From Nanobdellota archaeon (GTDB lineage: Archaea; Nanobdellota; Nanobdellia; Pacearchaeales; GW2011-AR1), in the NCBI GenBank assembly GCA_013329055.1, contig DUKY01000016.1, positions 4,559 to 68,558 on the forward strand: DNA of 64,000 bases. Reading direction: 5' to 3'. Shown here piece by piece: positions 12,085-32,365 of the stretch. Each line of letters starts with the position of its first letter. Positions within the stretch are counted from its first letter, which is position 1. The translations under genes and the position numbers were made by a program. The notes below the pieces were generated by a model, which was not told the DNA's origin, searched no databases, and saw nothing but the letters and a program-made list of their open reading frames with translations.

Positions 12085-12088
12085 CTTT

Positions 12089-13133: not shown

Positions 13134-13625
13134 TTATCCCATATGAATAATTTTTTTTGAATCATAAACAGGTTTTTTTCCAAAAACAGCTATACCATGA
13201 TTATAAATTTCTTTTTTTCCTTCTTTTGCATGCCACTTTTTTTCTAATTCTTTATCTTCTAAAAAAGTTCTTTCAAATGAAGAGGGATCATCAAAAAATA
13301 TTTTATTTTTATCATATCCAATAGCTACAACCCAATGAAACTCATTATAAGCACTCAGAAGAATTAAAACAGGTATTTTTTTATCAAGATAATTTTGAAT
13401 ATCTTTGATAGTCATTCTTTTTGATTCATATTTTAATTTAAATTCATCTAATGTTTTGAGTATTCCTTTGATTGTAGTTCCTTTTTTTGGATTAGTTTTT
13501 GCATCTTTCATTAAAATTTCTTCTCTTAATTCTATCCCATAATATACTAATACTGCCTGCAAAGCATTTGCTCCGCAATCATATTCATAAGTTTGCCTTA
13601 ACTTTGGAAAATCTAAAAGTTTCAT
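13134..13625 (-). CDS. C39-family cysteine peptidase (stand-alone)
   Basis: QTYEYDCG, HWVVAIGYD, DDPS. Confidence 0.85.
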   Translation of the reverse strand: MKLLDFPKLRQTYEYDCGANALQAVLVYYGIELREEILMKDAKTNPKKGTTIKGILKTLDEFKLKYESKRMTIKDIQNYLDKKIPVLILLSAYNEFHWVVAIGYDKNKIFFDDPSSFERTFLEDKELEKKWHAKEGKKEIYNHGIAVFGKKPVYDSKKIIHMG

Positions 13626-13668
13626 ATTATTATAGATTATTTTATTATATAAATATTATTTTTTAATG

Positions 13669-13820
13669 GGCTTTGTAGAAAGTAAAAAATAATTTTTGAA
13701 TTTTATACTAATTTCTTGGAAATTCAAATATTTTTAAGGGCGGGTCTTTTTGCTTTAGCAAAAATTTATAGAGGGGATTTATAAAATTTAAAAAACAAAA
13801 AATAAACTTTCTACAAAGCC
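13669..13820. mobile_element. 152-bp MITE with IS5/IS903-like ends
   Basis: 15-bp perfect terminal inverted repeats ggctttgtagaaagt (13669-13683) / actttctacaaagcc (13806-13820), flanked by a 9-bp direct repeat tttttaatg. Confidence 0.85.
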
Positions 13821-13881
13821 TTTTTAATGTGATAAAAAGTTATATAAGCTTTTATTAACAATCTTTAATAAAGAGGATACA

Positions 13882-15099: not shown

Positions 15100-15165
15100 A
15101 ATGGAAAAATTAAATTTTTATCTTTTTCAAACACAAGATAGGGAAATTAAAGGAGTATTTGAAAA

Positions 15166-16374
15166 ATGTTTAGCATAGAAAATATAAAATATTCTTTACG
15201 AAATATTAAACATAGAAAAACCAGAAGTATTTTAACAATTCTTTCAATTTTTATAGGAATTACTACAATATTTATTTTTATTAGTTTTGGCTGGGGGTTA
15301 TATGCTTATATTCAGGATTTGTCTTCCAGTACTTCAGCAGATAAAATAATCATTCAACCTCGTGGAACAGGTGCTCCTGGATTAGATACAACTTTTAAAC
15401 TTACAGACGAGGATTTAGATGCAATTGAAAAAACTGCAGGAGTTTATGAAGTTACAGGGGCTTATTTTAAAGTCGCAGAGGTTCAGCAGGGACATCAAAA
15501 GTTTTATACTTTTTTAGTGGGAATGGATCCTAAAAAACCAATGTTAATGGAAATTTCAAATATTGGAATTATTAAAGGAAGAGATTTACAACCAAGAGAA
15601 ACAGGAAGTGTTGCTTTAGGTTACAATTATTTAATTGAAGATAAAATTTTTCCTAATTCTTATGATATAAATGATAATATTGAAATAAATGGACAAAAAG
15701 TTAAAATTGTTGGGTTTTACGAAGCTGTCGGAAGTCCGCAAGATGATGCACAGATTTATACTACTAATGAATTCATTGAAGAGTTATATCCAAATGATAC
15801 AAATTCGTATGGTTGGGTTGTTGCAAGAGTAGATGTAAACAATATTGATAAAGTTATACAGGATGTTGAAAAAAATTTAAGAAAAGAAAGGGGACTTGAA
15901 GAGGGTAAAGAAGATTTTTTTGTTCAGTCTTTTGAAGATATGATAGATAGTTATGCCAGTGCATTAAATATTATTATTGGTTTTGTAATTTTAATTGCAT
16001 TAATCTCGGTTGTTGTTTCAGCAGTTAATACTGCTAATACTATGATTACTTCAGTTTTGGAAAGAATTAAAGAAATTGGTATTATCAAATCAATTGGTGC
16101 CAGAAATTCTGAGATTTTTACAATATTTTTATTTGAGTCAGGATTTTTGGGTTTTGTTGCGGGGGTTTTGGGAGTCTTACTTGGTTATATTAGTACATAT
16201 ATTGTCGGTAGAGTCTTAGAGTCATTAGGCTGGGGATTTTTAGCTCCGTACTATAATATTTACTTGTTTATAGGTTGCATATTATTTGCAACAATTACCG
16301 GTGCAATTTCAGGGGTTTGGCCTGCAATGAATGCTTCAAAAATTAATCCGGTTGATGCTTTAAGATATGAATAA
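15166..16374 (+). CDS. ABC transporter permease, MacB/FtsX family
   Basis: RSILTILSIFIG..NTMITSVLERIKEIGIIKSIGA..PVDALRYE. Confidence 0.93.
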   Translation: MFSIENIKYSLRNIKHRKTRSILTILSIFIGITTIFIFISFGWGLYAYIQDLSSSTSADKIIIQPRGTGAPGLDTTFKLTDEDLDAIEKTAGVYEVTGAYFKVAEVQQGHQKFYTFLVGMDPKKPMLMEISNIGIIKGRDLQPRETGSVALGYNYLIEDKIFPNSYDINDNIEINGQKVKIVGFYEAVGSPQDDAQIYTTNEFIEELYPNDTNSYGWVVARVDVNNIDKVIQDVEKNLRKERGLEEGKEDFFVQSFEDMIDSYASALNIIIGFVILIALISVVVSAVNTANTMITSVLERIKEIGIIKSIGARNSEIFTIFLFESGFLGFVAGVLGVLLGYISTYIVGRVLESLGWGFLAPYYNIYLFIGCILFATITGAISGVWPAMNASKINPVDALRYE

Positions 16375-16378
16375 AAGT

Positions 16379-16888
16379 TTATTTTTCAAATGTATCAAGA
16401 AGAAAATTAATATTATTTTTGTATTTAATTTTTTTTGAAAAATCAGAATCCATTTCTCTTATAATAAAATTATCTATAAGTGGACTACTTCCCTGATAAA
16501 ATGCTGTTGGTAGTTTATAATCATTTATTGAGGCAATTAATTCTGTTAATGTCCCAATTCCACCTGTAATTCCTATTACAGCTTCACTTCCTTTTACTTG
16601 CAATATATTTCTTATTGGATAATCTTGATTTGTATAAATGGGTGTATCAGGTTTTATTAAAACTTCTTCTCCAACTTCTTTCATTAATTTTAATTTAGGA
16701 TAATATCCAATAAATTCACGGCCATGATTTTGTTTGTATGCTTTTGCGACTAAACCTTGCATCCCTGAACTAGGTGATGCTATCAAGATATGCCCTCTTC
16801 GAGCAATAGACATGCCTAATTCTTGTGCTTGAGGGATATATTCCTTGACTTTTTCAGGATTCCAAGAGCCTACAACTAATATCTTCAT
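16379..16888 (-). CDS. LOG/SLOG-family nucleotide-binding protein
   Basis: KILVVGS..ELG..IA.RG..GMQG..RN..GGIGTLTEL; ATG at 16888. Confidence 0.7.
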   Translation of the reverse strand: MKILVVGSWNPEKVKEYIPQAQELGMSIARRGHILIASPSSGMQGLVAKAYKQNHGREFIGYYPKLKLMKEVGEEVLIKPDTPIYTNQDYPIRNILQVKGSEAVIGITGGIGTLTELIASINDYKLPTAFYQGSSPLIDNFIIREMDSDFSKKIKYKNNINFLLDTFEK

Positions 16889-16953
16889 AAAATTCGAGAA
16901 GAGATAGTTATTTATAAATCTTAGTTTAATACAAAATAATCCCAAAAGAAAAC

Positions 16954-17808
16954 TTATTTATGTTTATGCAAATCTCTTTTCTTTTTTCTATTTCTATAAG
17001 CAAAGAAAATTAAAATTAAAATTACAGCTCCAATTAAATAATAAATATTATAAGAGTTTGTTTTTTCATCAGCTTTTCTTCCTTGAAAATATGAAGAATC
17101 AAATAAAACTTCGCTTTCAACTATTCTTCTAACATTGATATTATCTGTATAAATGATATTTATCTTAATTATTCCATTTATAGGAGTTGCCTCAAATTCA
17201 GCAGTAGTATACTCATTTGAGTCTAAATCCCCTATAATATTTCGGTTTGATCCTTTTACGATAATATTATTTTGTTTTGGAACTTCAATTGTTATTGCTT
17301 CAACATCATTTTTTCCGATGTTTAATATCTCAAATGTAATTGTATTTGTAGTATAATCGTAATCTTTTACATGAACTTCAAAATCAACCCGTGGATCTTG
17401 CACATTTAACATAAATTGTTGTGTTTCATAGACTAAGTTTGATCCTTTCTTATATTGAACTTCAATAGGATTATCGCCATTTAATGCATTTGCATCAACT
17501 CTTACTTTATATGGTGCTGTCAAAAATGAACTATAATCTTTATTATAAATTCCGGACTGAAAAATAATTTTTGGTTCATCAGTTGGATCAAATGAGATAG
17601 GATATTTATCCAGCAATTCAAATTCAACCTTTCCACATTCAGGATTTGAAACTCCATTTACCTGAAAGACTACTTTTACATAATCTCCGGGAATTGCAGG
17701 ATAAGGGTCCTGATTGATTAAAGAGATATCTAATTTACATGCTTCAGATGAAACAAATGTAAAACTAAAAAACATTATTAATAAATAAATTAATACACTC
17801 TTTTTCAT
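16954..17808 (-). CDS. COG1361-like S-layer/Ig-domain membrane-anchored protein
   Basis: Signal peptide, QDPYPAIPGDYVKVVF, EILNIG..IGDLDS, C-terminal TM plus basic tail. Confidence 0.8.
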   Translation of the reverse strand: MKKSVLIYLLIMFFSFTFVSSEACKLDISLINQDPYPAIPGDYVKVVFQVNGVSNPECGKVEFELLDKYPISFDPTDEPKIIFQSGIYNKDYSSFLTAPYKVRVDANALNGDNPIEVQYKKGSNLVYETQQFMLNVQDPRVDFEVHVKDYDYTTNTITFEILNIGKNDVEAITIEVPKQNNIIVKGSNRNIIGDLDSNEYTTAEFEATPINGIIKINIIYTDNINVRRIVESEVLFDSSYFQGRKADEKTNSYNIYYLIGAVILILIFFAYRNRKKKRDLHKHK

Positions 17809-17931
17809 ATAAGTTTAAGAGATTGATTATTTTTAAAACTATTTATTTATAATTTAAAATTAACTAATTTTTACAAGATCTTAACCAAAATTTATAAACA
17901 AGAAACGCCAAGTTTTATTAAAGATGGAATA

Positions 17932-18134
17932 ATTCAAAATCAAACTGTGCCTTCGCACAGAAAACTATTAAAGATTTTGAATACAAAGAAAATCTTGGAA
18001 AAAATTTTCTAGCATTTCCATTTCAGGAGAAATGAAAATACAAAGAAAATCTTGGAAAAAATTTTCTAGCATTTCCATTTCAGGAGAAATGAAAATACAA
18101 AGAAAATCCATAAAAAAGGAGAAATGAAAATATG
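17932..18134. repeat. hairpin element plus 57-bp tandem repeat containing an SD/ATG-like motif
   Basis: attcaaaatc..ctgtgccttcgcacag..gattttgaat, then a 57-bp unit x2 plus a partial (17980-18108); ggagaaatgaaaata occurs three times. Confidence 0.85.
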
Positions 18135-18905
18135 AATAAAAGAGGGCAAATGACTATATTTTTAATTATTGGGATAATCCTTATTGCTATTGCAATAATT
18201 TTATTTTTTTTGAACAAACAAGATATTTTAAATCCAAATCAAATAGAGGTAGATAAAAAAGAATTTTTACAGACATGCATTGAAGAACGAATTACAGAAA
18301 CAGTTAATTTAATTGCAATACAAGGCGGATCAATTAATCCAACTTTAAAGAAAACATATGATTTAGAAGATGGACTTGGAAAGAAAAATATTTCAATATT
18401 ATGTTATAATCAAAATTTTTACACGCCATGCATTAATCAGGAACCAATGCTGGTTAATCATGTTAGAGAGGAAATTGAAAAAAATATTAGTCAAGATGTT
18501 AAACAATGTTTTGATGATTTGGTTATAAGTTTAAATAAAAAAGGATTTGAAACAAGTGCATTATACAAGGGTTTTGAAATTAAATTACAACCTGATAAAG
18601 TTATTTTAGAGATTTATGGAGAGATTACAACTACCAGAACAGATGAAACTAAAAAGGAAAAAGATTTTGAAATTATAGTTAAAAGCAAGTTCTATAATTT
18701 AATAATTGTTGCTCAAGAAATACTCAGCCAAGAAGCAAGATTCTGTCATTTTGAAAATCTTGGTTATATGTTATTTTATAAAAATTTTAATATTGATAAA
18801 TTCAAAACAGGAGATTTTTATACATTTTATACTGTAGAAGACAGAGACAGCCAAGAAAAATTCAGGTTTGCAATAAGGGGGTGTGCAATTCCTCCGGGAA
18901 TATAA
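18132..18905 (+). CDS. class III (type IV pilin-like) signal peptide protein, paralog 1
   Basis: MNKRG|QMTIFLIIGII; conserved C...QGG...LCY...CINQEPML...RGCAIPPG. Confidence 0.8.
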   Translation: MNKRGQMTIFLIIGIILIAIAIILFFLNKQDILNPNQIEVDKKEFLQTCIEERITETVNLIAIQGGSINPTLKKTYDLEDGLGKKNISILCYNQNFYTPCINQEPMLVNHVREEIEKNISQDVKQCFDDLVISLNKKGFETSALYKGFEIKLQPDKVILEIYGEITTTRTDETKKEKDFEIIVKSKFYNLIIVAQEILSQEARFCHFENLGYMLFYKNFNIDKFKTGDFYTFYTVEDRDSQEKFRFAIRGCAIPPGI

Positions 18906-18909
18906 AGAG

Positions 18910-21900
18910 ATGGTAAAACATAATCAAAAAATTAATTTAATGTTAATTGTATTTTTTCAAATAATTTTAATATTAAATATGACTTTTGCAGAAAGTTATT
19001 TTTTACATCAAGCAGACCAAATAACAGAGAATATAATTAGTGATAAAAATGACAAAGATTTATCGGATTTAATTTCAAAATTTTTAATTGATTTTTTAAT
19101 TATAAAACAAATTGGAACAGTTTCTGCAATTGGCTGGAGTTGTTGCCCTGAAACAATTATAGGTGCAAAATGCCAAGAACTTGCAAGTGTTGATACTGAA
19201 AGCTGTGCTGTTGAGATGATTCCTTCTAAATGTGAAGAATTTTCAGATTGCCAACTTGGTTGCTGTGTTGATGAAATTGAAGGGCTTTGCAGTACAAAAA
19301 CTCCTAAATCAATTTGTAAAAGGGATAATGGTACTTGGAGTGAAGATGAAAATTGCTTGATTCAAGAATGCCAAAAAGGATGCTGTATGTTAGGGGAAGA
19401 AGCTTCATTTGTTACTGAAACCAGATGTGAACAGCTTTCGGATATCTCCGGAACACAAAAAGATTTCCGAGATATAAATAATGAAGTGGATTGTCTTATG
19501 CAAAAAGTAAGTTCTAAGTTAGGAGCCTGTGTATTGGATTTTGAACCAATAATGAATCGTACTAATAAAACTAATTCATCTATTACAGGAGCAATAATCT
19601 CTAATTCAACAAATAATAGAACAAGCACAAATTTTACTGATGATGAAACTTGCAGGATTGTTACAGAAAGCGAATGCTACGAAATGGGGGGAACATTTGC
19701 CGGGGGTTATTTATGTTCACACCCTGATTTAAATACCGGATGCAAAAGACAAACAACAATTAATTGTGTTGATTCAAGTGATGAAATTTTCTGGTTTGAT
19801 TCTTGCGGTAATAAAGAAAACATTTATTCTTCAGACAGGGATGCTTCATGGAATGGAGGGATGATGATGAGTAAAGAAAAAAGTTGCAATCCAGATGTAT
19901 CAAATGCAAATTCAAAGGATTGTGGGAATTGCAATTATTTTTTAGGAAGTATTTGTCAAGAGAGTAAAAACCCTAAGGTAAAAGATGGAAATTTTATCTG
20001 CAAAGATATGGATTGCATTGATGAAGATGGAACTAAAAGAAAAAACGGAGAGAGCTGGTGCATATATGATTCTTATATTGGAGACGGAAAAGATACTGTT
20101 GGAAGCAGACACTGGAAAAGAATGTGCATTGATGGAGAGATAAAAGTAGAACCTTGTGCAGATTATAGAGGAGAAATTTGTGTTCAGGCAAAAAATGAAG
20201 AAGGCGAATCGTTTTCATATGCAGCATGTGTTGTGAATGAAGCACTTGCATGTATTTTAGAGTATAATTCTTTAGAAACAGAAGAAGAACGGGATGCAAA
20301 GTGTTTAGAGAATAAAGATTGCATGATTAAAGAAGTTAAAGTGAGTAAAGACTTTACTTATGATATCTGTACTTCGAGATATCCTAAAGGATTTGATTTA
20401 GTAGAAACTGAAAAGGGTAAAACTCAAGAGAGATTATGTGATATCGGTTCACAAAATTGCACAGTTTTATTAAAGAAAGGTTGGTTTAAAAGTGATTATA
20501 CTTGTGAAAAAAATTGTGAATGCAAAACTAAATTATTTACTCAACAATTAAATGATGTTTGTATTTCCCTTGGAGACTGCGGTTCTTATATTAATTTTGT
20601 AGGAGACGGGAGCGATAATATTATTGTTAAAAATACTGAAAAGATTTCTTGGAGAGATTATATCGGTTTTGCTGAACCTGTAAAAGGTCAATTTGCTGAA
20701 CCAAAAAAGAATCGAGGACCAATGGGAGGAGAATCTAATGGAACAGACAGAAAAAGCAATGTTAAAGGGGATGATTTAAGTGGTCTTGATATGCTTGGAA
20801 CTATTGCTGGGGGTCTTGGGACATTAGTGGGAGGGGCACAATATTTATATGGGGGAGAGATACTTTATGCTTCAGGATATGGTTTTTTTGCTGCAGAGGG
20901 AGCTAGTGCAGGAGTTGGAGTTACACCAGTATTTGCTTCTTTTGGAGCAGCAGCAGCAGGTTTTGCAATTGGTTCAATAATTGGTTCTTATTGGGCTAAA
21001 TCAATTGGAGCTACTAAAGAAACTGCAATGATTATGGCAATTTCCGGAGGGGTTGCAGGAGCTGCAATAGGTTATGCTTTAGTACAAGCATCAATTTCTA
21101 CTTTCAACATTTATGTTATTGTTATAGCAATAATTATTATGATAATTGCTGCACTTTTTGGACCTAGATATAAAACTGAAAAAGTTACTTTCAAATGCCA
21201 GCAATGGTCTGCACCTACAGGAGGAGAAAATTGTGAAAAATGCAATGAAGACCCATTAAAACCATGTTCGGCATATAGATGCAGTTCACTTGGACAAGCT
21301 TGTCAACTTATGGAAAATGATACTAAAAACCCGATTTGCATTGGAAGTGATGATGATGGTAAACCCCCGATTATATTTCCATTAAATACATCAGAAGGAT
21401 ATAAATTCTTTGAGAAAACAAATGATGGAGTAAAGATACGAACAGATAATCAAAAATGCATTCCTGAATTTACAATGTTTGATTTTTCTTTAGGAACTGA
21501 TGAACTTGCTCAATGTAAGTATAGTTTTGAAAAAACAAAAGATTATGAAGAGATGACTGAAACATTCTTGGAATCAAATTCATATTCAATGAATCATTCA
21601 ACATCGTTTATGATGCCAAGTATTCAAAGTTTAGAAAATGATATTAATGACACAGAAATTACTGTTATTCAAGATTTAAAGGAAACATATGCTAAATTAA
21701 ATTTATATGTTCGTTGCCAAGATGTATATGGTAATAAAAATGTTAGAGAATATATTGTTAATCTTTGCATTAATGACGGACCTGATTTAACTGCTCCATA
21801 CATTAAACAGATGGATCCAAAAAATGGAGGCAACATTAAATTTAATTCTACACAAGCACAAATTACTGCTTATGTTAATGAACCTGCAGATTGTAAATAT

Positions 21901-22920
21901 GATACCATCCCGAAAAAAGCATATGAACAAATGAATAACTCGATGCAATGCAATACTCAATTAGATGGTTCTGGTTTATATGGCTGGCCATGTCAGGCGA
22001 CATTTAGTAATTTAAAACCTGGTGCAAATAAATTTTATCTAAAATGCAAAGACCAGCCTTGGTTAAATGAATCAAATACTTCAAGAAATGCTAATACAGA
22101 AGATTATATTTATACTTTAAATGTTGCTGAAAAAAAGTTTAATATTTCTTCTATTTCTCCTCAGGGTATAATTAAAAATGGTTTTGCTCCTTCACAGGTT
22201 AATTTAGAAGTTCAAACAATTGGCGGGGTAGAAAATGGCAAGGGAACATGCGAATATAGTTTTACACAAAATGGTGAATATTATCAATTCTTTTCTACAT
22301 TTAGTGCCAAACATAAACAAACATTTGAATTAATGGGAGGAAATTATACTATTTATGTTAAATGCGAAGATGAAACAAATGATCAAGATAGCAGAATATC
22401 ACAATTTGATTTACAGATTGATTCAACACCTCCGGTTGTAATAAATTATACTGAAGGAGAAAAAATTGAATTTTATACTGATGAAGATGCTGAATGTTAT
22501 TATCATCCTTCTAAATGTAATTTTGATTTTGAAAATGGCACTTTAATCAGTACTAAATTTACAACAGAACATCAAATTACATTTGACCCTAGCATAACAT
22601 ATCATATTAAATGCACAGATGTGTGGAAAAATACTAATCCTGATTGTGCAATTATTTTGAATGCTCCGGATTTAGACCTTCCAATGATTGTCAGGGCTTA
22701 TAATTCAAATTCTGAATTGAAGATTATGACTGATAAGATTTCTAAATGTTATTATGATTTTGAAACTTGTTTATTTAATCCGGTTAATGCTCCGTCTATG
22801 ACTGCAGATTTGACAAAAGAGCATACAGTTAATTGGATTCCCGGAAAAGTTTATCATATTAAGTGTGCAGATGCCTGGGGCAATTTTCCAATTGATTGCA
22901 CACGAAAAATTTCGATGTAA
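18910..22920 (+). CDS. large secreted Cys-rich protein with central hydrophobic Gly-zipper region and C-terminal Ig-like repeats, paralog 1
   Basis: Signal peptide; dense CC/CxxC N-half; GTIAGGLG..GAAAAGFAIG..IAIIIMIIAALFG; repeated TDE.A.C.Y...H...Y..C.D units. Confidence 0.85.
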   Translation: MVKHNQKINLMLIVFFQIILILNMTFAESYFLHQADQITENIISDKNDKDLSDLISKFLIDFLIIKQIGTVSAIGWSCCPETIIGAKCQELASVDTESCAVEMIPSKCEEFSDCQLGCCVDEIEGLCSTKTPKSICKRDNGTWSEDENCLIQECQKGCCMLGEEASFVTETRCEQLSDISGTQKDFRDINNEVDCLMQKVSSKLGACVLDFEPIMNRTNKTNSSITGAIISNSTNNRTSTNFTDDETCRIVTESECYEMGGTFAGGYLCSHPDLNTGCKRQTTINCVDSSDEIFWFDSCGNKENIYSSDRDASWNGGMMMSKEKSCNPDVSNANSKDCGNCNYFLGSICQESKNPKVKDGNFICKDMDCIDEDGTKRKNGESWCIYDSYIGDGKDTVGSRHWKRMCIDGEIKVEPCADYRGEICVQAKNEEGESFSYAACVVNEALACILEYNSLETEEERDAKCLENKDCMIKEVKVSKDFTYDICTSRYPKGFDLVETEKGKTQERLCDIGSQNCTVLLKKGWFKSDYTCEKNCECKTKLFTQQLNDVCISLGDCGSYINFVGDGSDNIIVKNTEKISWRDYIGFAEPVKGQFAEPKKNRGPMGGESNGTDRKSNVKGDDLSGLDMLGTIAGGLGTLVGGAQYLYGGEILYASGYGFFAAEGASAGVGVTPVFASFGAAAAGFAIGSIIGSYWAKSIGATKETAMIMAISGGVAGAAIGYALVQASISTFNIYVIVIAIIIMIIAALFGPRYKTEKVTFKCQQWSAPTGGENCEKCNEDPLKPCSAYRCSSLGQACQLMENDTKNPICIGSDDDGKPPIIFPLNTSEGYKFFEKTNDGVKIRTDNQKCIPEFTMFDFSLGTDELAQCKYSFEKTKDYEEMTETFLESNSYSMNHSTSFMMPSIQSLENDINDTEITVIQDLKETYAKLNLYVRCQDVYGNKNVREYIVNLCINDGPDLTAPYIKQMDPKNGGNIKFNSTQAQITAYVNEPADCKYDTIPKKAYEQMNNSMQCNTQLDGSGLYGWPCQATFSNLKPGANKFYLKCKDQPWLNESNTSRNANTEDYIYTLNVAEKKFNISSISPQGIIKNGFAPSQVNLEVQTIGGVENGKGTCEYSFTQNGEYYQFFSTFSAKHKQTFELMGGNYTIYVKCEDETNDQDSRISQFDLQIDSTPPVVINYTEGEKIEFYTDEDAECYYHPSKCNFDFENGTLISTKFTTEHQITFDPSITYHIKCTDVWKNTNPDCAIILNAPDLDLPMIVRAYNSNSELKIMTDKISKCYYDFETCLFNPVNAPSMTADLTKEHTVNWIPGKVYHIKCADAWGNFPIDCTRKISM

Positions 22921-23557
22921 CGTAGAATTTCGAAATTTTTCGTGCCACTAAATCACCAAACGCCTTGCCTACGCAAGGAAAAAAACAAGATTTAGTTTGC
23001 ATGAAAAATCTCGATGTAAAGAATGAAGTGCCACTAAATCACCAAACGCCTTGCCTACGCAAGGAAAAAAACAAGATTTAGTTTGCATGAAAAATCTCGA
23101 TGTAAAGAATGAAGTGCCACTAAACCCCCCGCTGTGTCTACACACAGAAAACTATTAAGGATTTAGTTGGCACGCAAAATTTCAATGTAAAGAATGAAGT
23201 GACACTAAATCACCTACGCCTTGCCTAAAGCAAGGAAAAAAACAAGATTTAGTTTGCATGAAAAATTCCAATGTAAAGAATGAAGTGACACTAAACCCCC
23301 CGCTGTGCCTTCAACAAGAATCAAAGATTCTCGAGCATGACAACTTCACGAAACAACAAGAAGTTGTCATACGCACAGAAAAATATTAAAGATTTAGTCG
23401 GTGCTAAAGATTCAAAGAATCTTGGTTCCACTAAATCCTGCTGTGTCTACACACAGAAACTATTAAGGATTTAGTCGGCATGAAAAATTTCGATGTAAAG
23501 AATGAAGTGCCACTAAATCACCAACGCCTTGCCTAAAGCAAGGAAAAAAACAAGATT
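22901..23557. repeat. array 1 of composite palindromic units (about 86-bp period, 7 units)
   Basis: Repeating gtgccactaaa-[inner hairpin]-gatttagtt(t/g)gca(t/c)gaaaaat.tc.atgtaaagaatgaa. Confidence 0.92.
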
Positions 23558-23597
23558 AAACCCAAAAGGTAATAAATAACAAAAATTTAAAATTAAT

Positions 23598-24395
23598 GTG
23601 AAAAAAGAGATGAGTTTTGATAAAAGAGGACAGATGACGATGTTTATTGTAATTGCGATTTTAATTATTAGCGGAATTGCACTACTAATATTTTTTAATA
23701 AAGGGACTCCATTAATCGGAAGTCATCAGGAAATTAATAAAAAAGAATTTTTAGAAAGTTGTGTTGAAGAAGAGGTCAAAAATACATTAGAAATAATTGG
23801 TTTACAAGGAGGATATTTTAGCGAGAGCAAAATAATGACTAAGCCATTTAGTTCAGGAAGTACATATGGACAAAAAAACATTGCAGTTTTATGTTATAAT
23901 AAAAATTATTTTGATCCTTGCATTAATCAGGATCCTATGTTAATTCAGCATTTAAATGATGAAATTAAATTGGGGATTTCTAAAACTGTTAAAGATTGTT
24001 TTGATGCTTTAACATTAAGTTTGGAAAATCAAGGATTTGAGGTACAAGCAAAATATAATGGGTTTGATGTCCAATTATTGCCTGAAAAATTAAAATTAGA
24101 TATTAAGGGGGAAATTACAATAAGTCAAACAGGATCTACAACAAAAGAAAAAGATTTTGAAATTCTTTTTAGAACCAGATTATATGATATCGCAATAGTT
24201 GCCCAGAATATTATTAATCAGGAAGCTTCAACATGTTCATTTGACCATTCAGGGTTCATGTTATATTTTAAAGAATTTAGTATTGATAAAATAAGAACTT
24301 CAGATTCATTTGATATATTTGCAGTTAAATCTAAAGATAGTTATGAAATATTTAATTTTGCATTAAGAGGATGTGTAATTCCTCCGGGAGTATAA
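23598..24395 (+). CDS. class III signal peptide protein, paralog 2
   Basis: DKRG|QMTMFIVIAIL; ends RGCVIPPGV; start may be the ATG at 23610. Confidence 0.8.
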   Translation: MKKEMSFDKRGQMTMFIVIAILIISGIALLIFFNKGTPLIGSHQEINKKEFLESCVEEEVKNTLEIIGLQGGYFSESKIMTKPFSSGSTYGQKNIAVLCYNKNYFDPCINQDPMLIQHLNDEIKLGISKTVKDCFDALTLSLENQGFEVQAKYNGFDVQLLPEKLKLDIKGEITISQTGSTTKEKDFEILFRTRLYDIAIVAQNIINQEASTCSFDHSGFMLYFKEFSIDKIRTSDSFDIFAVKSKDSYEIFNFALRGCVIPPGV

Positions 24396-24396
24396 A

Positions 24397-27300
24397 ATGG
24401 ATAATAAAATTAAATTCAAATTAGGACTAATTGTTTTCTTAATTGGATTTTTAATTATGAACAACATTTATGCTTTGGATATTAATTGCTGTCCAAAAAT
24501 GATTGATAAATCCATATGCCAAGAAATCCTTGATACAGATACATCAACATGTTCTGTATCTCCACTTCCGGTTAGATGTGAAGAGTTTTCGGATTGCCAA
24601 TTAGGATGTTGCATTGATAAAACTGAAGGTCTTTGCACAACTCAAGCTCCAAGATCAGCCTGTGAAGATAATAATGGAACTTGGGAAGATGATGCATCAT
24701 GTTCTATTTCAGAATGTCAAAAAGGTTGTTGTGTAATTCAGGAGAATAGTTTATTTGTAACTGACCAAAGATGCGACCAGCTTTCAAATATTTCAGGAGT
24801 TGAAAAAGATTTTAGAGAAGTACAAACAGAGATGCAATGTCTGATGTTAAAAGGAAGCGGTGACAAAGGTGCTTGTGTTTTTGGATTTGTACCACGTATT
24901 AATGAAACTAATAATACAAAAAATAATTCCAAAACTATTAAACCTTATACTTCTAATAATACTATTAATAATTCTAATTCTACGAATAATACAAATTCGT
25001 CTATCACAGGTTACCTTGTTTCAAATAATTCAAGAATGCCCAGAGAATCAAATGAATCAGAAGAAGATAATGGTGCTTGCAGGATTACAACTGAATCTGA
25101 ATGTTATGACATGGGGGGAATGTTTGCTAATAGCTATTTATGTTCTCACCCTGATTTAAATACCGGATGTAAAAGACAGACAAGTATTGATTGTTCTGAT
25201 ACAAGTGATGAAATTTTTTGGTTTGATTCCTGCGGGAATAAAGAGAACATTTATTCTTCAAATAAAGATGCTTCGTGGAATGGCGGGATGATGATGAGCA
25301 AAGAACAAAGTTGTGGAGCAGGTTCTTCAAATGCTAATTCACAAGATTGCGGTAACTGTAATTATATTTTGGGAAGTATTTGTGCTGAAAGTGAAAACCC
25401 TAAAGTTAAAGACGGAGATTTTATCTGCAAAGATATGAATTGTGTTGAGAAAGATGGGACCAAAAGACAAAATGGTGAAAGCTGGTGTGTATATGATTCT
25501 TATATTGGCGACGGAAAAGATACTGTTGGAAGCAGACACTGGAAAAGACTCTGCACTGATGGGGAGATAGATGTTGAACCTTGTGCAGATTATAGAGCAG
25601 AACTTTGTGCACAAAAAGTAACAGAAGTTGAAATGCCTGAAGGGGGAAAAAAATCACTTACTGTTGCTAAGTGTGTTATTAATGAAGGGTTAAATTGCAT
25701 CTTTGATTATAATGACCCCAAGGATGCTGAAAAAACTGCAAAATGTTTGAAGAATACTGATTGTATGATTAATCATGTTTATGTAAGTGAATACTTTCAA
25801 TTTGATTTTTGCACTGCAAGGTATCCAAAAGGATTTGAATTAAAAAATGAAGATGATAAAGAAGACAGGGGGGTTAAACAAAAAGCATTATGCTCAATGA
25901 GTTCACAAAATTGCACAGTTATCTATGAAAAAAAGAGAAAAGGAATGTTTGGCAGTAAATGGGTGTGTGTTGCTAACTGTGAATGCCAAACAGATGCATT
26001 TATCGCAGAAATGAATGATCTTTGCATCTCTATGGGAGATTGCGGAACTTACATTAATTATATTGGAGAAGGAACAAAGAATATTGGTTTAGTGAATAAC
26101 CCTGGAGATGTTGCTTGGGAAGCATACAAACATTTTGCAGAACCAGTTAAGGGTCAATTTGTTGCACCAAAAGAATTTAGAGGTCCACAAGGAGAGGCTG
26201 GAGGAGAAGAGGAGATTAATACTTATAGACATAAATATACTAATGGTTATAGCGGAGAAGTTAATATTTGGGGAACTAATCCGGATGATGGATGGATTGC
26301 TAATTGGAACGGGCATGTTGAGATAAAATGGCTTTCAAAAACTTTTGGAATGGATGATTATGATGCTTATATGTGGTCGCAATTAACAACAGTAATTATT
26401 AAAAAAGAACTTTTGGGAGTTTATGAAACTGGTAGTTATGGAATTCCTTCAATTGTATGGGTGATTATTGATTGGATACAGGGAATTGGAAAAACTAAAA
26501 AAGTAATTGTTGAATTTCATTGTAATCCTTGGAAAGCTCCGTTAGGAGGGATAAATTGTGAAAAATGCAATGGTGATTTATTAAAACCTTGTTCAAAATA
26601 TAGATGTGATTCTTTAGGGCAAGCGTGTATGTTATCAAATTTAAGTGTTGAATTTCCACTTTGTTTATCTGCAGATGCTAATGACGGTAAACCGCCAGTT
26701 ATTTCTCCACTTAATGTTTCTAAAGGTTACAAATTCATGGAAGAAACAGCAAATGGAGTAAAGATTAGAACTGAAGATGGAAAATGCATACCGGAGTTTA
26801 CTACTGTTAAATTTTCTTTGAAAACAGATAAATTTGCTCAATGCAAATACAGTTTAAATAGAACTAAAGATTATACAGATATGGATTTATCTTTTGCAGA
26901 AACAACTGCTTTTACGAAAAATCATACAACCTCTTTTATGATGCCTAGTTATGATAGTTTAATTAATGAACTCGATCCTGAGGTAGAATTTAGTCGGGAT
27001 AAATTTGCAAATTTCGATATGTTTGTCAGATGTCAAGATGGATATGGCAATGTGAATAAAGTTGAATATGTTGTTAATCTTTGTGTTAATGATGGACCGG
27101 ATAAAACTGCTCCGTGGATAACAAGAGTTATTCCGGAAAATGGGAAAACTTTAAGATTTAATACTACAAGTAGTCCAGTTACAGTCTATGTAAATGAACC
27201 TGCAAATTGCAGATATGATACAATTGCAAATAAAAAATATGAAAATATGACTTATAACATGACATGCCAAACTGAACTTTCACAGGTAAGTCTTGGTGGC

Positions 27301-28236
27301 TGGCCTTGTTCTGCAAATCTTACTAATTTAAGTTTAGGAAATAATAATTTTTATTTTAAATGCAAAGATCAGCCTTGGTTACCGGAAGATAATGAAACAA
27401 GGAATGTTAATTCAGAAGATTATGTTTATTCGTTGTATGTTTCAGAACATAAATTTAATATTAGTTCAATTTCTCCTCAGGATATAATCAAAAACGGATT
27501 TGAGCCTGCTCCTGTAACATTAAAAGCTCAAACTTTTGGGGGAGTAGATTCAGGAAAAGGTACATGTGAATATAGTTTTGCACAAAACGGAAGTTATTAT
27601 CAATTCCTTAAAACATTTGGATATACTCATACGCAAGTATTTGATTTAATGGGAGGAAATTATACTATTTATGTTAAATGCCATGATGAATCAGACGACG
27701 AAGCTTATGGAACTGCAAATTTTGAATTACAAATTGATACAACTCCGCCAGTTATAATTAATTATTCTGAGGATGGAAAAATTGAACTTTATACAGATGA
27801 AAAAGCTGAATGCTTTTATCATCCGACTAAATGCAACTTTGATATTGATAATGCTACTTCGATGACTGTTGGTTTTTCACAAGAACATTTTGCAAATTGG
27901 GACCCAGGTATTACTTATCATGTTAAATGTGCAGATGTTTGGGGTAATACTAATCCAGATTGTGCAGTTATTTTGAATTCTCCGGATTTAGAACTTCCAA
28001 TTATTACCAGAGCATATAATGCGGGCAATTCATTAAATATTATTACTAGTGAAATTGCTAAATGTTATTATGATTTTGAAACGTGTTATTTTAAACCGGA
28101 AAATGCTCCATCTATGACTCCGGATTTAGAAACAGAACATACAGTTAATTGGATTCCTGGAAAGGTTTATCATATTAAATGTGCTGATGCATGGGGCAAT
28201 TATCCTATGGATTGCTCACGAAAAATTTCGATGTAG
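24397..28236 (+). CDS. large secreted Cys-rich protein, paralog 2 (different central region)
   Basis: Collinear with paralog 1 (e.g. YDSYIGDGKDTVGSRHWKR, ends RKISM) except for the central segment. Confidence 0.85.
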   Translation: MDNKIKFKLGLIVFLIGFLIMNNIYALDINCCPKMIDKSICQEILDTDTSTCSVSPLPVRCEEFSDCQLGCCIDKTEGLCTTQAPRSACEDNNGTWEDDASCSISECQKGCCVIQENSLFVTDQRCDQLSNISGVEKDFREVQTEMQCLMLKGSGDKGACVFGFVPRINETNNTKNNSKTIKPYTSNNTINNSNSTNNTNSSITGYLVSNNSRMPRESNESEEDNGACRITTESECYDMGGMFANSYLCSHPDLNTGCKRQTSIDCSDTSDEIFWFDSCGNKENIYSSNKDASWNGGMMMSKEQSCGAGSSNANSQDCGNCNYILGSICAESENPKVKDGDFICKDMNCVEKDGTKRQNGESWCVYDSYIGDGKDTVGSRHWKRLCTDGEIDVEPCADYRAELCAQKVTEVEMPEGGKKSLTVAKCVINEGLNCIFDYNDPKDAEKTAKCLKNTDCMINHVYVSEYFQFDFCTARYPKGFELKNEDDKEDRGVKQKALCSMSSQNCTVIYEKKRKGMFGSKWVCVANCECQTDAFIAEMNDLCISMGDCGTYINYIGEGTKNIGLVNNPGDVAWEAYKHFAEPVKGQFVAPKEFRGPQGEAGGEEEINTYRHKYTNGYSGEVNIWGTNPDDGWIANWNGHVEIKWLSKTFGMDDYDAYMWSQLTTVIIKKELLGVYETGSYGIPSIVWVIIDWIQGIGKTKKVIVEFHCNPWKAPLGGINCEKCNGDLLKPCSKYRCDSLGQACMLSNLSVEFPLCLSADANDGKPPVISPLNVSKGYKFMEETANGVKIRTEDGKCIPEFTTVKFSLKTDKFAQCKYSLNRTKDYTDMDLSFAETTAFTKNHTTSFMMPSYDSLINELDPEVEFSRDKFANFDMFVRCQDGYGNVNKVEYVVNLCVNDGPDKTAPWITRVIPENGKTLRFNTTSSPVTVYVNEPANCRYDTIANKKYENMTYNMTCQTELSQVSLGGWPCSANLTNLSLGNNNFYFKCKDQPWLPEDNETRNVNSEDYVYSLYVSEHKFNISSISPQDIIKNGFEPAPVTLKAQTFGGVDSGKGTCEYSFAQNGSYYQFLKTFGYTHTQVFDLMGGNYTIYVKCHDESDDEAYGTANFELQIDTTPPVIINYSEDGKIELYTDEKAECFYHPTKCNFDIDNATSMTVGFSQEHFANWDPGITYHVKCADVWGNTNPDCAVILNSPDLELPIITRAYNAGNSLNIITSEIAKCYYDFETCYFKPENAPSMTPDLETEHTVNWIPGKVYHIKCADAWGNYPMDCSRKISM

Positions 28237-28895
28237 GGAAATTTCGAAATTTTTCGTGCAACTAAACCCCCCACTGTCCTTCAACGAGAATCAAAGATTC
28301 TCGAGCATGACAACTTCACGAAACAACAAGAAGTTGTCATACGCACAGAAAAATATTAAAGATTTAGTTGGCATGAAAAATTTCAATGTAAAGAATAAAA
28401 TGCCACTAAATCACCAAACCTTAAGCAAGATTTAGTTTGCATGAAAAATTTTAATGTAAGTTTAGAAAAACTAAATCAACCAACGCCTTGCCTACAATGA
28501 GAATCAAAGATTCTCAAGCATGACAACTTCGCGAAACAACAAGAAGTTGTCATACGCAAGGATTAAAACAAGATTTAGTTGGCATGAAAAATTCCAATGT
28601 AAAGAATGAAGTACAACTAAATCACCAAACGCCTTGCCTACGCAAGGATTAAAACAAGATTTAGTTTGCATGAAAAATTCCAATGTAAAGCGAAAGTTTA
28701 GTGCCACTAAACCCCCGCTGTGCCTTCAACGAGAATCAAAGATTCTCGAGCATGACAACTTCATGAAACAACAAGAAGTTGTCATACGCACAGAAAAATA
28801 TTAAAGATTTAGTCGGTGCTAAAGATTCAAAAAATCTTGGCACAACTAAATCACCAAACCTTAAGCAAGATTTAGTTTGCATGAAAAATTCCAAG
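28217..28895. repeat. array 2 of composite palindromic units (6 units, 3 with the nested 60-bp insert)
   Basis: Same actaaa...tttagt outer stem and gcatgaaaaatt.caatgtaa linker as array 1. Confidence 0.92.
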
Positions 28896-28947
28896 AGTAA
28901 ATTTCAATTTGGTTAACTATATAAATAATAAATTACATAAAATAAAT

Positions 28948-29703
28948 ATGAAAAGGGGACAGGTTACATTATTTATAATCATGGGTATGATGATTATTAT
29001 ATTAGGTATTTTATTATTCCTTTTTTCTCCAAAAATACAAGATCTTTTCTTAACTGAAACAAAAAATCCTTCTTCGTTTATTCAGGATTGCATTGAAGAA
29101 GATATCAGTTTAGCAGTTAATGTATTATCTTTAAATGGGGGAAGCATTAATCCTGAACATTATTTTGTTTATGATGGTTCAAGATTAGAATATTTGTGTT
29201 ATATCGAGGGATTTTATCAAACTTGTGTTGTTCAGCAACCTATGTTAAAGAGACATATTGAGATGGAAATTGAAAAAGCAATTACTCAAAAATCTGAAGA
29301 ATGTTTTGCGGATTTAAAAGAAAGTTATGAAAGGAAAGGTTATCAAGTAAGTTTATCTAAAGGAGAGATTGATGTTGAACTTTTGCCTCAAAAAATTGTT
29401 ACGACTTTTAATAATTCTTTAACTTTGACTAAAGAATCAACAGAAAGTTATAAATCAGTAAGAGTTGTAATAAATAATAATCTTTATGAATTGGTAAGTA
29501 TTGCTAATAGTATTATAGATTGGGAATCAAAATACGGAGATTCTGAAACAACAGTTTATATGAATCTTTATCATGATTTAAAGGTTGAAAAGAAAGTACA
29601 TTCCGAGGGTACAACGGTTTATGTTTTAACAGATAGAGATAATTTAAATAAATTCCAATTTGCTTCAAGAAGTGTGGCATGGCCACCAGGATATGGATTT
29701 TAA
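28948..29703 (+). CDS. class III signal peptide protein, paralog 3
   Basis: MKRG|QVTLFIIMG; FIQDCIE..GGSI.P..YLCY..CVVQQPML..RSVAWPPG. Confidence 0.8.
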   Translation: MKRGQVTLFIIMGMMIIILGILLFLFSPKIQDLFLTETKNPSSFIQDCIEEDISLAVNVLSLNGGSINPEHYFVYDGSRLEYLCYIEGFYQTCVVQQPMLKRHIEMEIEKAITQKSEECFADLKESYERKGYQVSLSKGEIDVELLPQKIVTTFNNSLTLTKESTESYKSVRVVINNNLYELVSIANSIIDWESKYGDSETTVYMNLYHDLKVEKKVHSEGTTVYVLTDRDNLNKFQFASRSVAWPPGYGF

Positions 29704-29704
29704 A

Positions 29705-30055
29705 ATGAAAGAAGAATTTAAACAATGGTTACAAATGGCTAAAGAAGACAGTAACGAAAAATTATTAAAAGATTTTAAAGATAAACTTTCAAATCATATT
29801 CCGATAACTAAAATGTTATTATTTGGTTCAAGAGCAAGAAGAGATGAAAATAAATGGAGTGATTTTGATTTAATAATTGTCAGTGATAATTTTCAAAATA
29901 AAGACACATTACACAGACCTTTTGAGTTATATGATTATTGGGATTTAGATTATCCTGTAGATTTTATATGCTACACTCCTAAAGAATATAATAAACTCAA
30001 AAATAAAATGGCTATTTTAAAAAATGCATTAAAAGAGGGAATAGAAATAAAATGA
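29705..30055 (+). CDS. MNT nucleotidyltransferase fused to a HEPN N-terminal stub
   Basis: LFGSRAR...SDFDLIIVS; the N-terminal MKEEFKQWLQMAKED resembles a HEPN first helix. Confidence 0.75.
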   Translation: MKEEFKQWLQMAKEDSNEKLLKDFKDKLSNHIPITKMLLFGSRARRDENKWSDFDLIIVSDNFQNKDTLHRPFELYDYWDLDYPVDFICYTPKEYNKLKNKMAILKNALKEGIEIK

Positions 30056-31596
30056 AAAACAAAATAATTTTTAGTTTGGTGTTAGGTATCTTTTTAATTA
30101 GTTTAGCTTATGCAGATATATCTTATTGTTGTGAAAAAACAGTTAATGGTGCGTGGTGCCAAAATTCTCCAAAAGAAAATTGTGACGAGGGATTTAGAAG
30201 CACTCCTGCTTCATGTGAAGCTACTTCTTATTGTAAACTTGGAACTTGTATGGATAGTCAAGAAGGGACTTGCATGGAAAATTCTCCTCAAAAAGTTTGT
30301 GAAGAAAGCGGGGGAGTTTGGAAGTTAGGTTCTGCTGATGAAATTCCACAATGTTCTTTAGGTTGCTGTGCAATTGGTGACGGGGCAGCGTTTGTTACTC
30401 AAACAAGATGTAAAAGACTTTCATCAATTTATTCATTAAAGACTGATTTTAGGACAGATGTTGCAAGTGAATTTGAATGTATTTCAAGTGCTAAATCAAG
30501 TGCTAAGGGTGCTTGTGTATTTGAAAGTGAATACCAAAGAACTTGTTTACTTTTAAGTCAGGCAGAATGTTCAGAGAGGGGGGGAACAAATGAAAGTGAA
30601 TTTCACGAGGGATATTTATGTTCTGATGAATCATTAGGTACAGATTGCGGTCCAACTGAACAAACAAGATGTGTTGAGAATAGAGATGAAGTTTATTTTG
30701 TTGATAGTTGCGGTAATTTGGCGAATATTTACGATGCTTCAAAAATAAAGGATAAAAATTATTGGTCTAAGATTTATGATAAAACACAAAGTTGCGGGAC
30801 TGATTCCGGAAATGCTAATTCTGCTTCTTGTGGTAATTGTGATTATTATTTAGGTAGTATGTGCAAAGAATATAAAAGAGATGCTGATAAAGTTCAGCCA
30901 AATTATGGGAATTTTATTTGCAGAGATTTAAGCTGTAATTTTGATGGTAAAAAATATAATCATGGTGAAACATGGTGTCAAAATAGTGAAGGTGTAGATA
31001 AGAATTTACCTGGAAGCAGATATTTTAGGGCAGTATGTTACAATGGGGAAGTCAGTATTGAACCTTGTGCAGATTTTAGACAAGAAATTTGTTTAGAATC
31101 AAAGGTTGAAAGTTTTTCTGCTGCTGGTTGCATTGCAAATAAATGGCAAGATTGTTTTAGTCAAAGTAGTCAAAAAGATTGCGAAAACCAAGATAGAAGG
31201 GATTGTGTTTGGATGGAGAAGGTAAATCTTACCGGGGGAAATACTTCTAAAGGAGTTCAATGTGTTGCTAAATTTGCTCCGGGATTTAAATTCTGGGAAT
31301 CCGGAAGTCAGACACAAACGAGTACAACACCCACAACAACTACTGGAAATGCTAGTGCTGGTGCAGGTTCTAATAGTTCTAATTTTGGTGCGATGCCTTC
31401 TCAATCTCAGTCATTATGTTCACTTGCAGATTCTAAATGTACAGTGCAGTATGAAAAAAAATTGTTTGGCAGTAAAAAATGTGTTAAAAATTGTGAATGT
31501 TTAGACCAAAAATGGCAGGAAACTCAAAATGAAATTTGTGTTTCAATCGGGGATTGCGGAAATTCTACTAATTTTATTGGTGTTAAGGGATATTAA
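30052..31596 (+). CDS. secreted Cys-rich protein, paralog 3 (N-terminal half only)
   Basis: CCEKT..CQ..LGCC..FVTQTRC..DSCGN..GSRYF..EPCADFRQEIC..; stops at IGDCG..NFIG. Confidence 0.82.
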   Translation: MKNKIIFSLVLGIFLISLAYADISYCCEKTVNGAWCQNSPKENCDEGFRSTPASCEATSYCKLGTCMDSQEGTCMENSPQKVCEESGGVWKLGSADEIPQCSLGCCAIGDGAAFVTQTRCKRLSSIYSLKTDFRTDVASEFECISSAKSSAKGACVFESEYQRTCLLLSQAECSERGGTNESEFHEGYLCSDESLGTDCGPTEQTRCVENRDEVYFVDSCGNLANIYDASKIKDKNYWSKIYDKTQSCGTDSGNANSASCGNCDYYLGSMCKEYKRDADKVQPNYGNFICRDLSCNFDGKKYNHGETWCQNSEGVDKNLPGSRYFRAVCYNGEVSIEPCADFRQEICLESKVESFSAAGCIANKWQDCFSQSSQKDCENQDRRDCVWMEKVNLTGGNTSKGVQCVAKFAPGFKFWESGSQTQTSTTPTTTTGNASAGAGSNSSNFGAMPSQSQSLCSLADSKCTVQYEKKLFGSKKCVKNCECLDQKWQETQNEICVSIGDCGNSTNFIGVKGY

Positions 31597-31657
31597 TTAC
31601 CAGAAAAAATTATTTTGAATGGATTAACTTTATATAATTTAAAGAATTAGAAAATAC

Positions 31658-32365
31658 ATGAAAGGAGTTATTTTAGCAGGAGGAACAGGATCAAGATTAT
31701 TTCCTTTAACAAAAGTTACAAATAAACATTTACTTCCAATTTATAATAAGCCAATGATTTATTATCCCCTTCAAACATTAATTAGTGCAAATATTAAGGA
31801 GGTTTTAATAATTTCAGGTCCAGAACATGCAGGGCATTTCTTAAATTTGCTTGGTTCAGGAAAAGAATTTGGAGTAAAATTTACTTATGAAATTCAAGAA
31901 AAAGCGGGAGGAATTGCTCAAGCTCTTAGTCTTGCAGAGGATTTTTCCAATAATGGTCCGATTACAGTAATTCTTGGGGATAATATCTATGAAGATAACT
32001 TTAGTGAAGAAATAAAATCTTTTGAAAAAGGAGGGATGATTTTTTTAAAAGAAGTACAAGATCCGGAAAGATTCGGTGTTGCTGAATTAAATGGAAAAAA
32101 TGTAATTAAAATAGAAGAAAAGCCAAAAATACCAAAATCAAATTATTGTGTTACGGGACTTTATGTTTATGATAATGAAGTATTTAGTGTCATTAAGACT
32201 TTAAAACCATCTAAAAGGGGAGAACTGGAAATAACAGATGTGAATAATTATTATATAGATAAAAATGCTATGAAAGCAGAATTTGTAAAGGGTTTTTGGA
32301 GTGATGCTGGAACTTTTGAAAGTTTAATTAAAGCTTCTAATTTAATTAGAGAGAAAATTAATTAG
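31658..32365 (+). CDS. rmlA: glucose-1-phosphate thymidylyltransferase (short form)
   Basis: GVILAGGTGSRLFPLT..NKHLLPIYNKPMIYY, PSKRGELEITD, WSDAGT. Confidence 0.9.
   Translation: MKGVILAGGTGSRLFPLTKVTNKHLLPIYNKPMIYYPLQTLISANIKEVLIISGPEHAGHFLNLLGSGKEFGVKFTYEIQEKAGGIAQALSLAEDFSNNGPITVILGDNIYEDNFSEEIKSFEKGGMIFLKEVQDPERFGVAELNGKNVIKIEEKPKIPKSNYCVTGLYVYDNEVFSVIKTLKPSKRGELEITDVNNYYIDKNAMKAEFVKGFWSDAGTFESLIKASNLIREKIN

Follow-up and report, generated by a model that had tools for sequence, protein, structure and literature searches.

In a 64,000-nucleotide stretch of contig DUKY01000016.1 from a Nanobdellota archaeon (assembly GCA_013329055.1, positions 4,559 to 68,558 of the forward strand; hereafter the window), three tandem gene pairs occupy the + strand between positions 18132 and 31596, each composed of a gene for a protein with a class III signal peptide (A1 to A3) and a gene for a Cys-rich protein (C1 to C3). 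The window has a G+C content of approximately 30% and lies on contig C15 of a DPANN-type genome (G000) of 1.19 Mb from a groundwater archaeon. The three pairs, first noticed when the sequence was read on its own (the sequence-only reading), were confirmed by open reading frame (ORF) listing and translation; a nucleotidyltransferase gene between A3 and C3 had been overlooked at that stage. The pairing of A with C, its conservation in other genomes, and the surface structure that the two proteins might build are the subject of this work. The features of the locus, in window coordinates, are the following.

17941..18093, unstranded: hairpin-repeat copies 5' of A1 (repeat families D10, D15 and D17), including a 57-nucleotide tandem duplication
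18132..18905, + strand: A1, 257 amino acids; class III signal peptide (KRGQ and hydrophobic helix), globular domain, four invariant Cys
18910..22920, + strand: C1, canonical full-length form; signal peptide, Cys-rich head, four-helix Gly-rich anchor, immunoglobulin (Ig)-like tail
20458..20505, + strand: Cys-bounded loop of C1 with a Lys/Trp/Gly tip (residues 526-541)
20776..21161, + strand: central hydrophobic region of C1, the membrane anchor, by AlphaFold2 helices, hydrophobicity and conserved Gly
22921..23597, unstranded: hairpin-repeat array (approximately 86 nucleotides per repeat) between pairs 1 and 2, from a repeat search
23598..24395, + strand: A2, 265 amino acids, sister of A1 in the A tree (local support 97)
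24397..28236, + strand: C2, 1279 amino acids, lineage-specific duplicate of C1 with head and tail intact and the anchor replaced
25912..25968, + strand: Cys-bounded loop of C2 (residues 506-524)
26176..26514, + strand: orphan Trp-rich slot of C2 (residues 594-706)
28237..28908, unstranded: hairpin-repeat array of the same repeat between pairs 2 and 3, from a repeat search
28909..29703, + strand: A3, 264 amino acids, probable ATG at 28948; member of an ancient second A clade (A') that precedes head-only C genes
29660..30055, + strand: solo minimal nucleotidyltransferase (MNT-type), 131 amino acids (PF01909, E 1.6e-10)
30052..31596, + strand: C3, head-only, 514 amino acids, ortholog of a conserved split-type head
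31438..31482, + strand: Cys-bounded loop of C3 (residues 463-477), outside the confident A3 contacts

The ORF of C1 comprises 1345 amino acids from a GTG at 18883, the probable start being the ATG at 18910, 4 nucleotides past the A1 stop, while C2 begins 1 nucleotide after the stop of A2. All three A proteins open with KRGQ followed by a hydrophobic stretch. In a three-way alignment, C1 and C2 are collinear except in a central slot (residues 624-760, approximately, in C1 and 594-706 in C2), which is Gly/Ala-rich and hydrophobic in C1 and unrelated in C2, where 8 Trp residues occur in the 121-amino-acid slot as delimited; C3 ends, with the residues GVKGY, directly before this slot. The KRGQ motif, the collinear flanks, the contrasting slots and the early end of C3 had been picked out by the sequence-only reading, as had the Cys-bounded loop present in C1, C2 and C3. 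The loop is in fact a feature of the family: it holds an aromatic residue in 102 of 112 aligned homologs, measures 14-15 residues in 89 of them (15 in 68), and has a consensus resembling C-T-V-I-Y-x-K-D-W-K-G-x-W-x-C. Contigs from four DNA runs, none of them marked as a possible source of this DNA, reach every one of the 30 bins of positions 17800-31800, with no single piece spanning the region. It is of note that C1 (18883-19140) and most homologs carry two hydrophobic segments at the N-terminus, ahead of the first CC motif, where C2 and C3 have one simple signal peptide.

Neither A nor C has a Pfam or NCBIfam match above cut-off or a significant PDB sequence match, and no description of the family was found in the full-text literature. 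C2 has 204 database homologs at E<=1e-3; the source names among the 120 listed are all DPANN-type or unclassified 'archaeon', and nearly all of these proteins are annotated as hypothetical. A scan of species-representative genomes yielded 457 matching stretches. The locus counts given here rest on 79 fetched loci of other genomes, the 85 full-length C homologs being those of these loci and of the window. A profile search of all ORFs revealed that most of the 79 loci share one order, in which A is followed by a full-length C, a second A (A'), a head-only C of approximately 500 amino acids (C_N) and a separate anchor-plus-tail gene (C_C). An A gene lies upstream of 79 of the 85 full-length C genes, at a distance of at most 20 nucleotides in 64 of those 79, and upstream of every one of the 58 head-only C genes. 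The A-C arrangement is far beyond chance, and the recurrence of the same adjacency in the 79 fetched loci bears out the linkage of the two genes in other genomes. Within the phylum, the head was found in 76 of 301 sampled genomes, and in 12 of the 13 that belong to the window's own family.

The central slot of C1 is the ordinary membrane anchor of this family. A strongly hydrophobic window of 19 amino acids is present in the slot of 80 of the 83 homologs in which the slot could be delimited among the 120 listed, the exceptions being C2 itself, P0076 and P0111. The 85 full-length homologs display at least two hydrophobic segments in 79 cases and at least three in 75, and several Gly columns of the slot region show little or no variation. 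Residues 624-1345 of C1, modeled with AlphaFold2 on an 85-row alignment, reached a mean predicted local distance difference test score (pLDDT) of 82.7 and form four helices in the model (residues 632-655, 682-708, 712-735 and 740-759), followed by beta-rich domains. What nearly all homologs share at this place, a conserved hydrophobic region of several helices with conserved Gly, is thus an anchor and not a swappable payload, and C1, which had been described as a plain secreted protein, is membrane-anchored.

This result bears directly on the proposal of the sequence-only reading that the slot holds a polymorphic, exchangeable, membrane-inserting payload (a pore, a fusogen or a TraN-like element), delivered to the host membrane by a pilus-associated apparatus. 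The proposal was attractive: C1 and C2 differ wholly in the slot while their flanks are collinear, the canonical slot resembles a Gly zipper (Pfam Gly-zipper_YMGG, E 0.007, below its cut-off), and the Cys-bounded hairpin with its Trp/Gly/Lys tip is conserved. However, a conserved transmembrane anchor in homologs, which the proposal itself had named as the observation that would speak against it, is what the family displays, in place of the variable, exchangeable module between conserved flanks that characterizes glycine-zipper and polymorphic toxin payloads; furthermore, the C2 version of the slot is limited to one 90% cluster and its variants, and the head shows no likeness to such effectors, as described below. 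The payload idea has therefore been corrected as wrong, and is regarded as highly improbable.

The model of the C3 head (60-row alignment) reached a pLDDT of 82.8 and a predicted template modeling score of 0.62, with the Cys-bounded loop folded as a beta-hairpin (block-mean pLDDT approximately 86-89). Foldseek returned 0 hits for it at E<=0.001 in PDB or BFVD, and the likeness to fusexins, TraN or pore-formers for which this check had been suggested was not seen: the three-domain, beta-rich class II fold was not recognized, no fusogen appears among the 50 PDB hits shown, and the head has no Pfam, PDB sequence or Foldseek match to TraN, structures of which are presumably contained in the PDB copy searched. 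The tail, on the other hand, is modeled as a tandem array of Ig and fibronectin type III (FnIII) domains, with at least 500 PDB Foldseek matches at E<=0.001 (best 1.4e-15), and Pfam Y_Y_Y matches C with an E-value of 1.8e-5, just under its cut-off. In addition, C1 (22669-22917) and C2 (27985-28233) carry an extra C-terminal Ig-like repeat, seen as a second match to profile positions 1152-1233, which is present in only approximately 4% of aligned homologs. With four helices in the anchor, head and tail would face the same side, and we infer that both lie outside the cell; an outside location of the tail is indirectly favored by invariant Cys pairs, Ig-like folds, and two conserved N-x-S/T sequons (in 78% and 68% of 112 homologs).

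The association between A and the head of C was explored by multimer prediction. For A3 (residues 44-264) with C3 (residues 22-514), the interface score ipSAE (interaction prediction score from aligned errors) was 0.82, 0.82 and 0.81, whereas the highest-scoring of three controls gave 0.00; at least 56% of the contacts were common to the runs, with a pLDDT of at least 86 for the partner, and the predicted contacts include the invariant A motifs YLCY...C..Q.P and PPG. The same ipSAE mark is reached by 58 of 80 solved complexes and by 2 of 110 mismatched pairs, a calibration that is only rough here, as own alignments were used. The prediction, a check that the sequence-only reading had suggested, is consistent with binding of the pilin-like partner and provides support, not proof, for an A3-C3 complex. 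Together with gene adjacency and the co-duplication of the two genes in phylogenetic trees (see below), it upholds the idea that A and C are functionally linked. If A does bind the head, head-only and anchor-less forms of C could stay at the cell surface through the N-terminal helix of A.

The nature of A evokes the question of whether the complex is a true pilus. The strict class III signal pattern ([KR]G, then Q/A/S, and approximately 20 hydrophobic residues) is present in at least 108 of 146 A homologs, and the Q that follows the G is invariant in 69 aligned A sequences. The remainder of A is a globular domain of approximately 220 amino acids with two conserved Cys pairs; the ESM Atlas model of A1 (pLDDT 0.84) has structural neighbors in DPANN only, and a PDB search with the A profile yielded nothing significant, the best match being a flagellin N-terminus at E 0.4. 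The genome encodes one prepilin peptidase above cut-off (Peptidase_A24, G000:C14, E 2.8e-11), as well as two T2SSE ATPases and two T2SSF platform proteins, located on contigs C13 and C14. One could imagine A as a minor pilin in a type IV filament, with C at its tip or base in the manner of minor pilins and PilY1, so that the assembly would be a true pilus rather than a membrane-anchored one. The widespread class III motif, the filament machinery encoded in the genome, and four further class III-signal genes within the same conserved operon speak for this scenario. Against it stand the multi-helix anchor that C itself owns, a globular domain in A with no sequence match to any pilin, and the location of the ATPase and platform genes, none of which is found on the window contig C15 or beside the second half of the operon on contig C18. 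Type IV filament systems are, moreover, described as having no wide distribution among DPANN (PMC13705601). On balance, the pilus scenario appears somewhat unlikely.

The three pairs differ in origin. In a tree of the head domain (143 rows), C1 and C2 are sisters (local support 100) and C3 falls inside a head-only clade; the label 'full-length' or 'head-only' changes 4 times on this tree, against 45 times with shuffled labels. The A tree (134 rows) shows the same pattern, A1 and A2 being sisters and A3 lying inside the A' clade. The matching trees indicate that pair 2 arose from pair 1 by a lineage-specific duplication, and that pair 3 is an ancient split pair. Arrays of the approximately 86-nucleotide hairpin repeat occupy all of the intergenic spaces that separate the A-C units, with a perfect 57-nucleotide tandem duplication at 17980-18093; it is plausible that recombination between such arrays mediated the duplication of pair 1.

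Extra copies of this kind tend to lose the anchor. A supernumerary full-length copy exists in five loci, and in four of them (C2 of the window, and the copies of loci L009, L032 and L075) the slot measures 77-121 amino acids and contains 0-1 hydrophobic segments, while L007 has kept the anchors of both full-length copies. By comparison, only 2 of the other 81 full-length genes have one hydrophobic segment or fewer. Since C2 groups with C1, and the L009 and L032 copies with each other, anchor loss would have originated independently at least twice, a count that rests on a FastTree tree and long branches.

The slot that now occupies the place of the anchor in C2 is an orphan. Its DNA does not align with that of the C1 slot, and no alternative frame of either yields the other; a frameshift origin was rejected, as the other frames of the C2 slot are riddled with stops and do not encode the sequence of C1. 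Only the last 25 or so amino acids align with the family, namely with its last helix and the GKTK motif. The slot contains no 19-residue window that attains the hydrophobicity threshold (at least 1.2), and its windows are not exceptional in an interfacial scan on the Wimley-White scale. A dispersed mobile insert was also rejected as its source, the genome holding no second copy (best other match, E 0.1). An exhaustive phmmer search against 1.84 billion representatives retrieved only its own cluster and three marginal matches (approximately E 1e-4), no Pfam family was matched at E<=10, ankyrin models included, and an Atlas feature search gave 0.78, below chance level. One of the marginal matches is an ankyrin-repeat protein (E 1.2e-4 over 26 amino acids), the similarity resembling a single ankyrin-type repeat.

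An orphan segment of this kind raises the possibility that C2 is a decaying, redundant duplicate, in which anchor loss is degeneration and the Trp-rich segment meaningless filler. Its branch is longer than that of C1 (0.38 versus 0.28), its slot is without relatives, and a related variant, P0002, has suffered further deletions, all of which would suit decay. However, the 1279-codon frame of C2 is intact and every family-invariant column is kept; 13 full-length C2 alleles, 94-100% identical, retain the slot, with only 9 variable columns in residues 585-715; and independent metagenome contigs extend into the slot from either side (26011-26391 and 26464-26901), covering both junctions. C2 is thus maintained, and the recurrence of anchor-poor extra copies in other lineages suggests a state that is tolerated or selected, which makes simple decay quite unlikely.

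Pair 3, in turn, is not a truncated version of the other two, as paralog 3 had seemed to be from the sequence, but belongs to a conserved head-only form that is always preceded by an A gene. C3 has as its nearest relative a Pacearchaeota C_N, at 66% identity. The anchor-plus-tail gene that completes the split pair is found on contig C18; it encodes 749 amino acids with its own N-terminal signal or anchor segment, and its location on a contig other than that of the window implies that the operon is split in two in this genome. At locus L083 (G000:C18:110000-129999, positions 10035-19121), this gene is followed by four class III-signal proteins of 247, 311, 194 and 171 amino acids, and, after two small unrelated ORFs, by an S-layer-like gene of 802 amino acids. 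The same four class III-signal genes follow C_C in other genomes as well. A gene of approximately 190-260 amino acids often lies between the head-only C and the anchor-plus-tail gene (L018 12074-12712, L040 12295-12948, L046 12679-13362, L008 9388-10164 and similar); it matched no Pfam family in the four cases tested, and may be a further conserved component.

The nucleotidyltransferase inserted between A3 and C3 matches the MntA model NF047752 with an E-value of 5.8e-6, below the cut-off (26.1 versus 60 bits). Between A3 and C3 there is no candidate ORF of at least 60 amino acids for a HEPN (higher eukaryotes and prokaryotes nucleotide-binding) partner, only ORFs of at least 120 amino acids having been scanned against Pfam. 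Complete MNT/HEPN pairs are present at the same operon position in loci L001 (8713-9325), L007 (8822-9480) and L020 (10522-11143), where all six of the small ORFs tested are MNT or HEPN (HepT) genes. The gap between A' and the head-only C has repeatedly received MNT/HEPN (HepT) toxin-antitoxin pairs. Contigs of three of the four DNA runs contain a joint (29700 to 30048) that skips 347 nucleotides, its shorter side being only 30 nucleotides long, which gives a weak hint of alleles without the nucleotidyltransferase insert.

Two further genes of the window look as if they encode surface proteins. The ORF at 40170-53597 encodes 4475 amino acids and weakly matches the Ig-like portion of the C profile (E 1.2e-4). 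The gene at 34779-37655 encodes an acidic protein of 958 amino acids with Thr/Pro/Glu repeats and an N-terminal hydrophobic segment, and has no Pfam family; it was considered as a diverged anchor-plus-tail partner and rejected, the C profile matching it only at E 1.

Taken as a whole, the locus is probably a rearranged and enlarged version of an operon that is conserved among certain DPANN archaea (of the Pacearchaeota/Woesearchaeota type) and would build a cell-surface complex not described before, in which A holds the head of C. C would comprise a signal peptide, a disulfide-rich head of novel type, a Gly-rich membrane anchor of four helices and, as its stalk, a series of Ig-like domains; A has an archaeal prepilin-type N-terminal helix and a globular domain that is predicted to clasp the head. 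The usual operon contains one full-length pair (A and C) and one split pair (A', head-only C, and the anchor-plus-tail gene). In this genome, pair 1 would have been duplicated, probably through recombination of the hairpin-repeat arrays on its flanks; the C2 copy lost the multi-helix anchor, now carries the orphan Trp-rich linker in its place, and may be held at the surface only via A2 or other subunits, or be released; and pair 3 would be the conserved split pair, whose anchor-plus-tail gene now resides on another contig. The anatomy of the proteins, their conservation, the duplication history and the fold classes are observed and A-head binding is predicted; an outside position of head and tail, the way in which C is tethered and a function in attachment or host contact are inferred.

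A number of points weigh against this explanation. The duplication history is drawn from FastTree trees, which carry no more than local support values; confidence is low for the model of the first C1 anchor helix (residues 632-655, pLDDT approximately 50); and the score of the A3-C3 complex is a model confidence rather than a measurement. The topology is open to a different interpretation, since Lys/Arg residues after the last helix would, by the positive-inside rule, make the tail cytoplasmic, and an amphipathic third helix in the split C_C makes the number of membrane crossings unreadable from sequence. In addition, A and C are known from sequence and models, and no RNA run was present among the 20 listed; C2 could be decaying rather than functional; and the occurrence of the head in roughly a quarter of the sampled genomes signifies that the complex is not a general DPANN feature.

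The same distribution is relevant to the idea that the complex is a structural component of the envelope, involved for example in S-layer anchoring or cell-wall scaffolding, and plays no part in contact with a host. The proximity of the S-layer-like gene to the second half of the operon, and a gene order that is conserved in the family and not hypervariable, would fit such a component; so sparse an occurrence would be odd for a core part of the envelope, and the variation in copy number together with the fast divergence of extra copies is typical of interaction proteins. This alternative is considered unlikely. A host-attached life is presumed for most DPANN archaea, and to our knowledge no attachment structure is known for the large uncultivated Pacearchaeota and Woesearchaeota groups. 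It is tempting to imagine the A-C assembly as the host-attachment machine of DPANN of this type, whose extra heads shed their anchor and either ride on A or are released, thereby diversifying host range; the natural split between a head gene and an anchor-plus-stalk gene would then mark the head as a detachable module. This bolder version is a doubtful, quite speculative one. For the cell-surface complex proposed here, pilin-like proteins and a novel-head protein encoded in a conserved operon, with a strong predicted interface, offer a concrete pair to express and test, and the repeated loss of the anchor in extra copies, together with the natural division of head and stalk, reveals modular parts.

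Several known systems can be compared to this locus. The 131-amino-acid gene is of the MNT type, as in type VII MNT/HepT (HEPN) pairs, complete examples of which sit at the same position in three other genomes; unlike these, the window gene has no HEPN partner seen between A3 and C3, and its MntA score is below cut-off. Local alignments relate segments of the head to fibronectin type I, von Willebrand C and tumor necrosis factor receptor-like modules (Foldseek probability 0.75-0.91 over approximately 47-80 columns), although all E-values are 0.026 or above, and the 500-amino-acid head as a whole is unmatched (template modeling (TM) score by query at most 0.12). The tail resembles PTP-delta, contactins, titin and the grappling-hook protein GhpA (Foldseek E 1e-15 to 1e-9, probability 1.00), a generic likeness of tandem Ig/FnIII stalks (approximately 10% identity, TM-score approximately 0.2 over the whole chain) from which no shared function can be deduced.

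Type IV filament systems include modules of minor pilins and large adhesins, such as minor pilins with PilY1. These share with the A-C operon small prepilin-helix proteins that are encoded beside a large surface protein, and predicted to bind it, and several pilin-like genes in one operon; unlike them, the A-C operon has no linked ATPase or platform gene, and C has its own four-helix anchor and a head in which no likeness to known adhesins was seen in sequence or fold. Class III signal peptides also occur on surface proteins other than pilins, such as the sugar-binding proteins of the Sulfolobus bindosome. A differs from the latter in having no match to a substrate-binding-protein family (Pfam, NCBIfam) and in being paired with a Cys-rich partner, but resembles them in that a prepilin-type signal is carried by a sizeable globular extracellular protein and would serve surface anchoring or assembly, and not a long filament.

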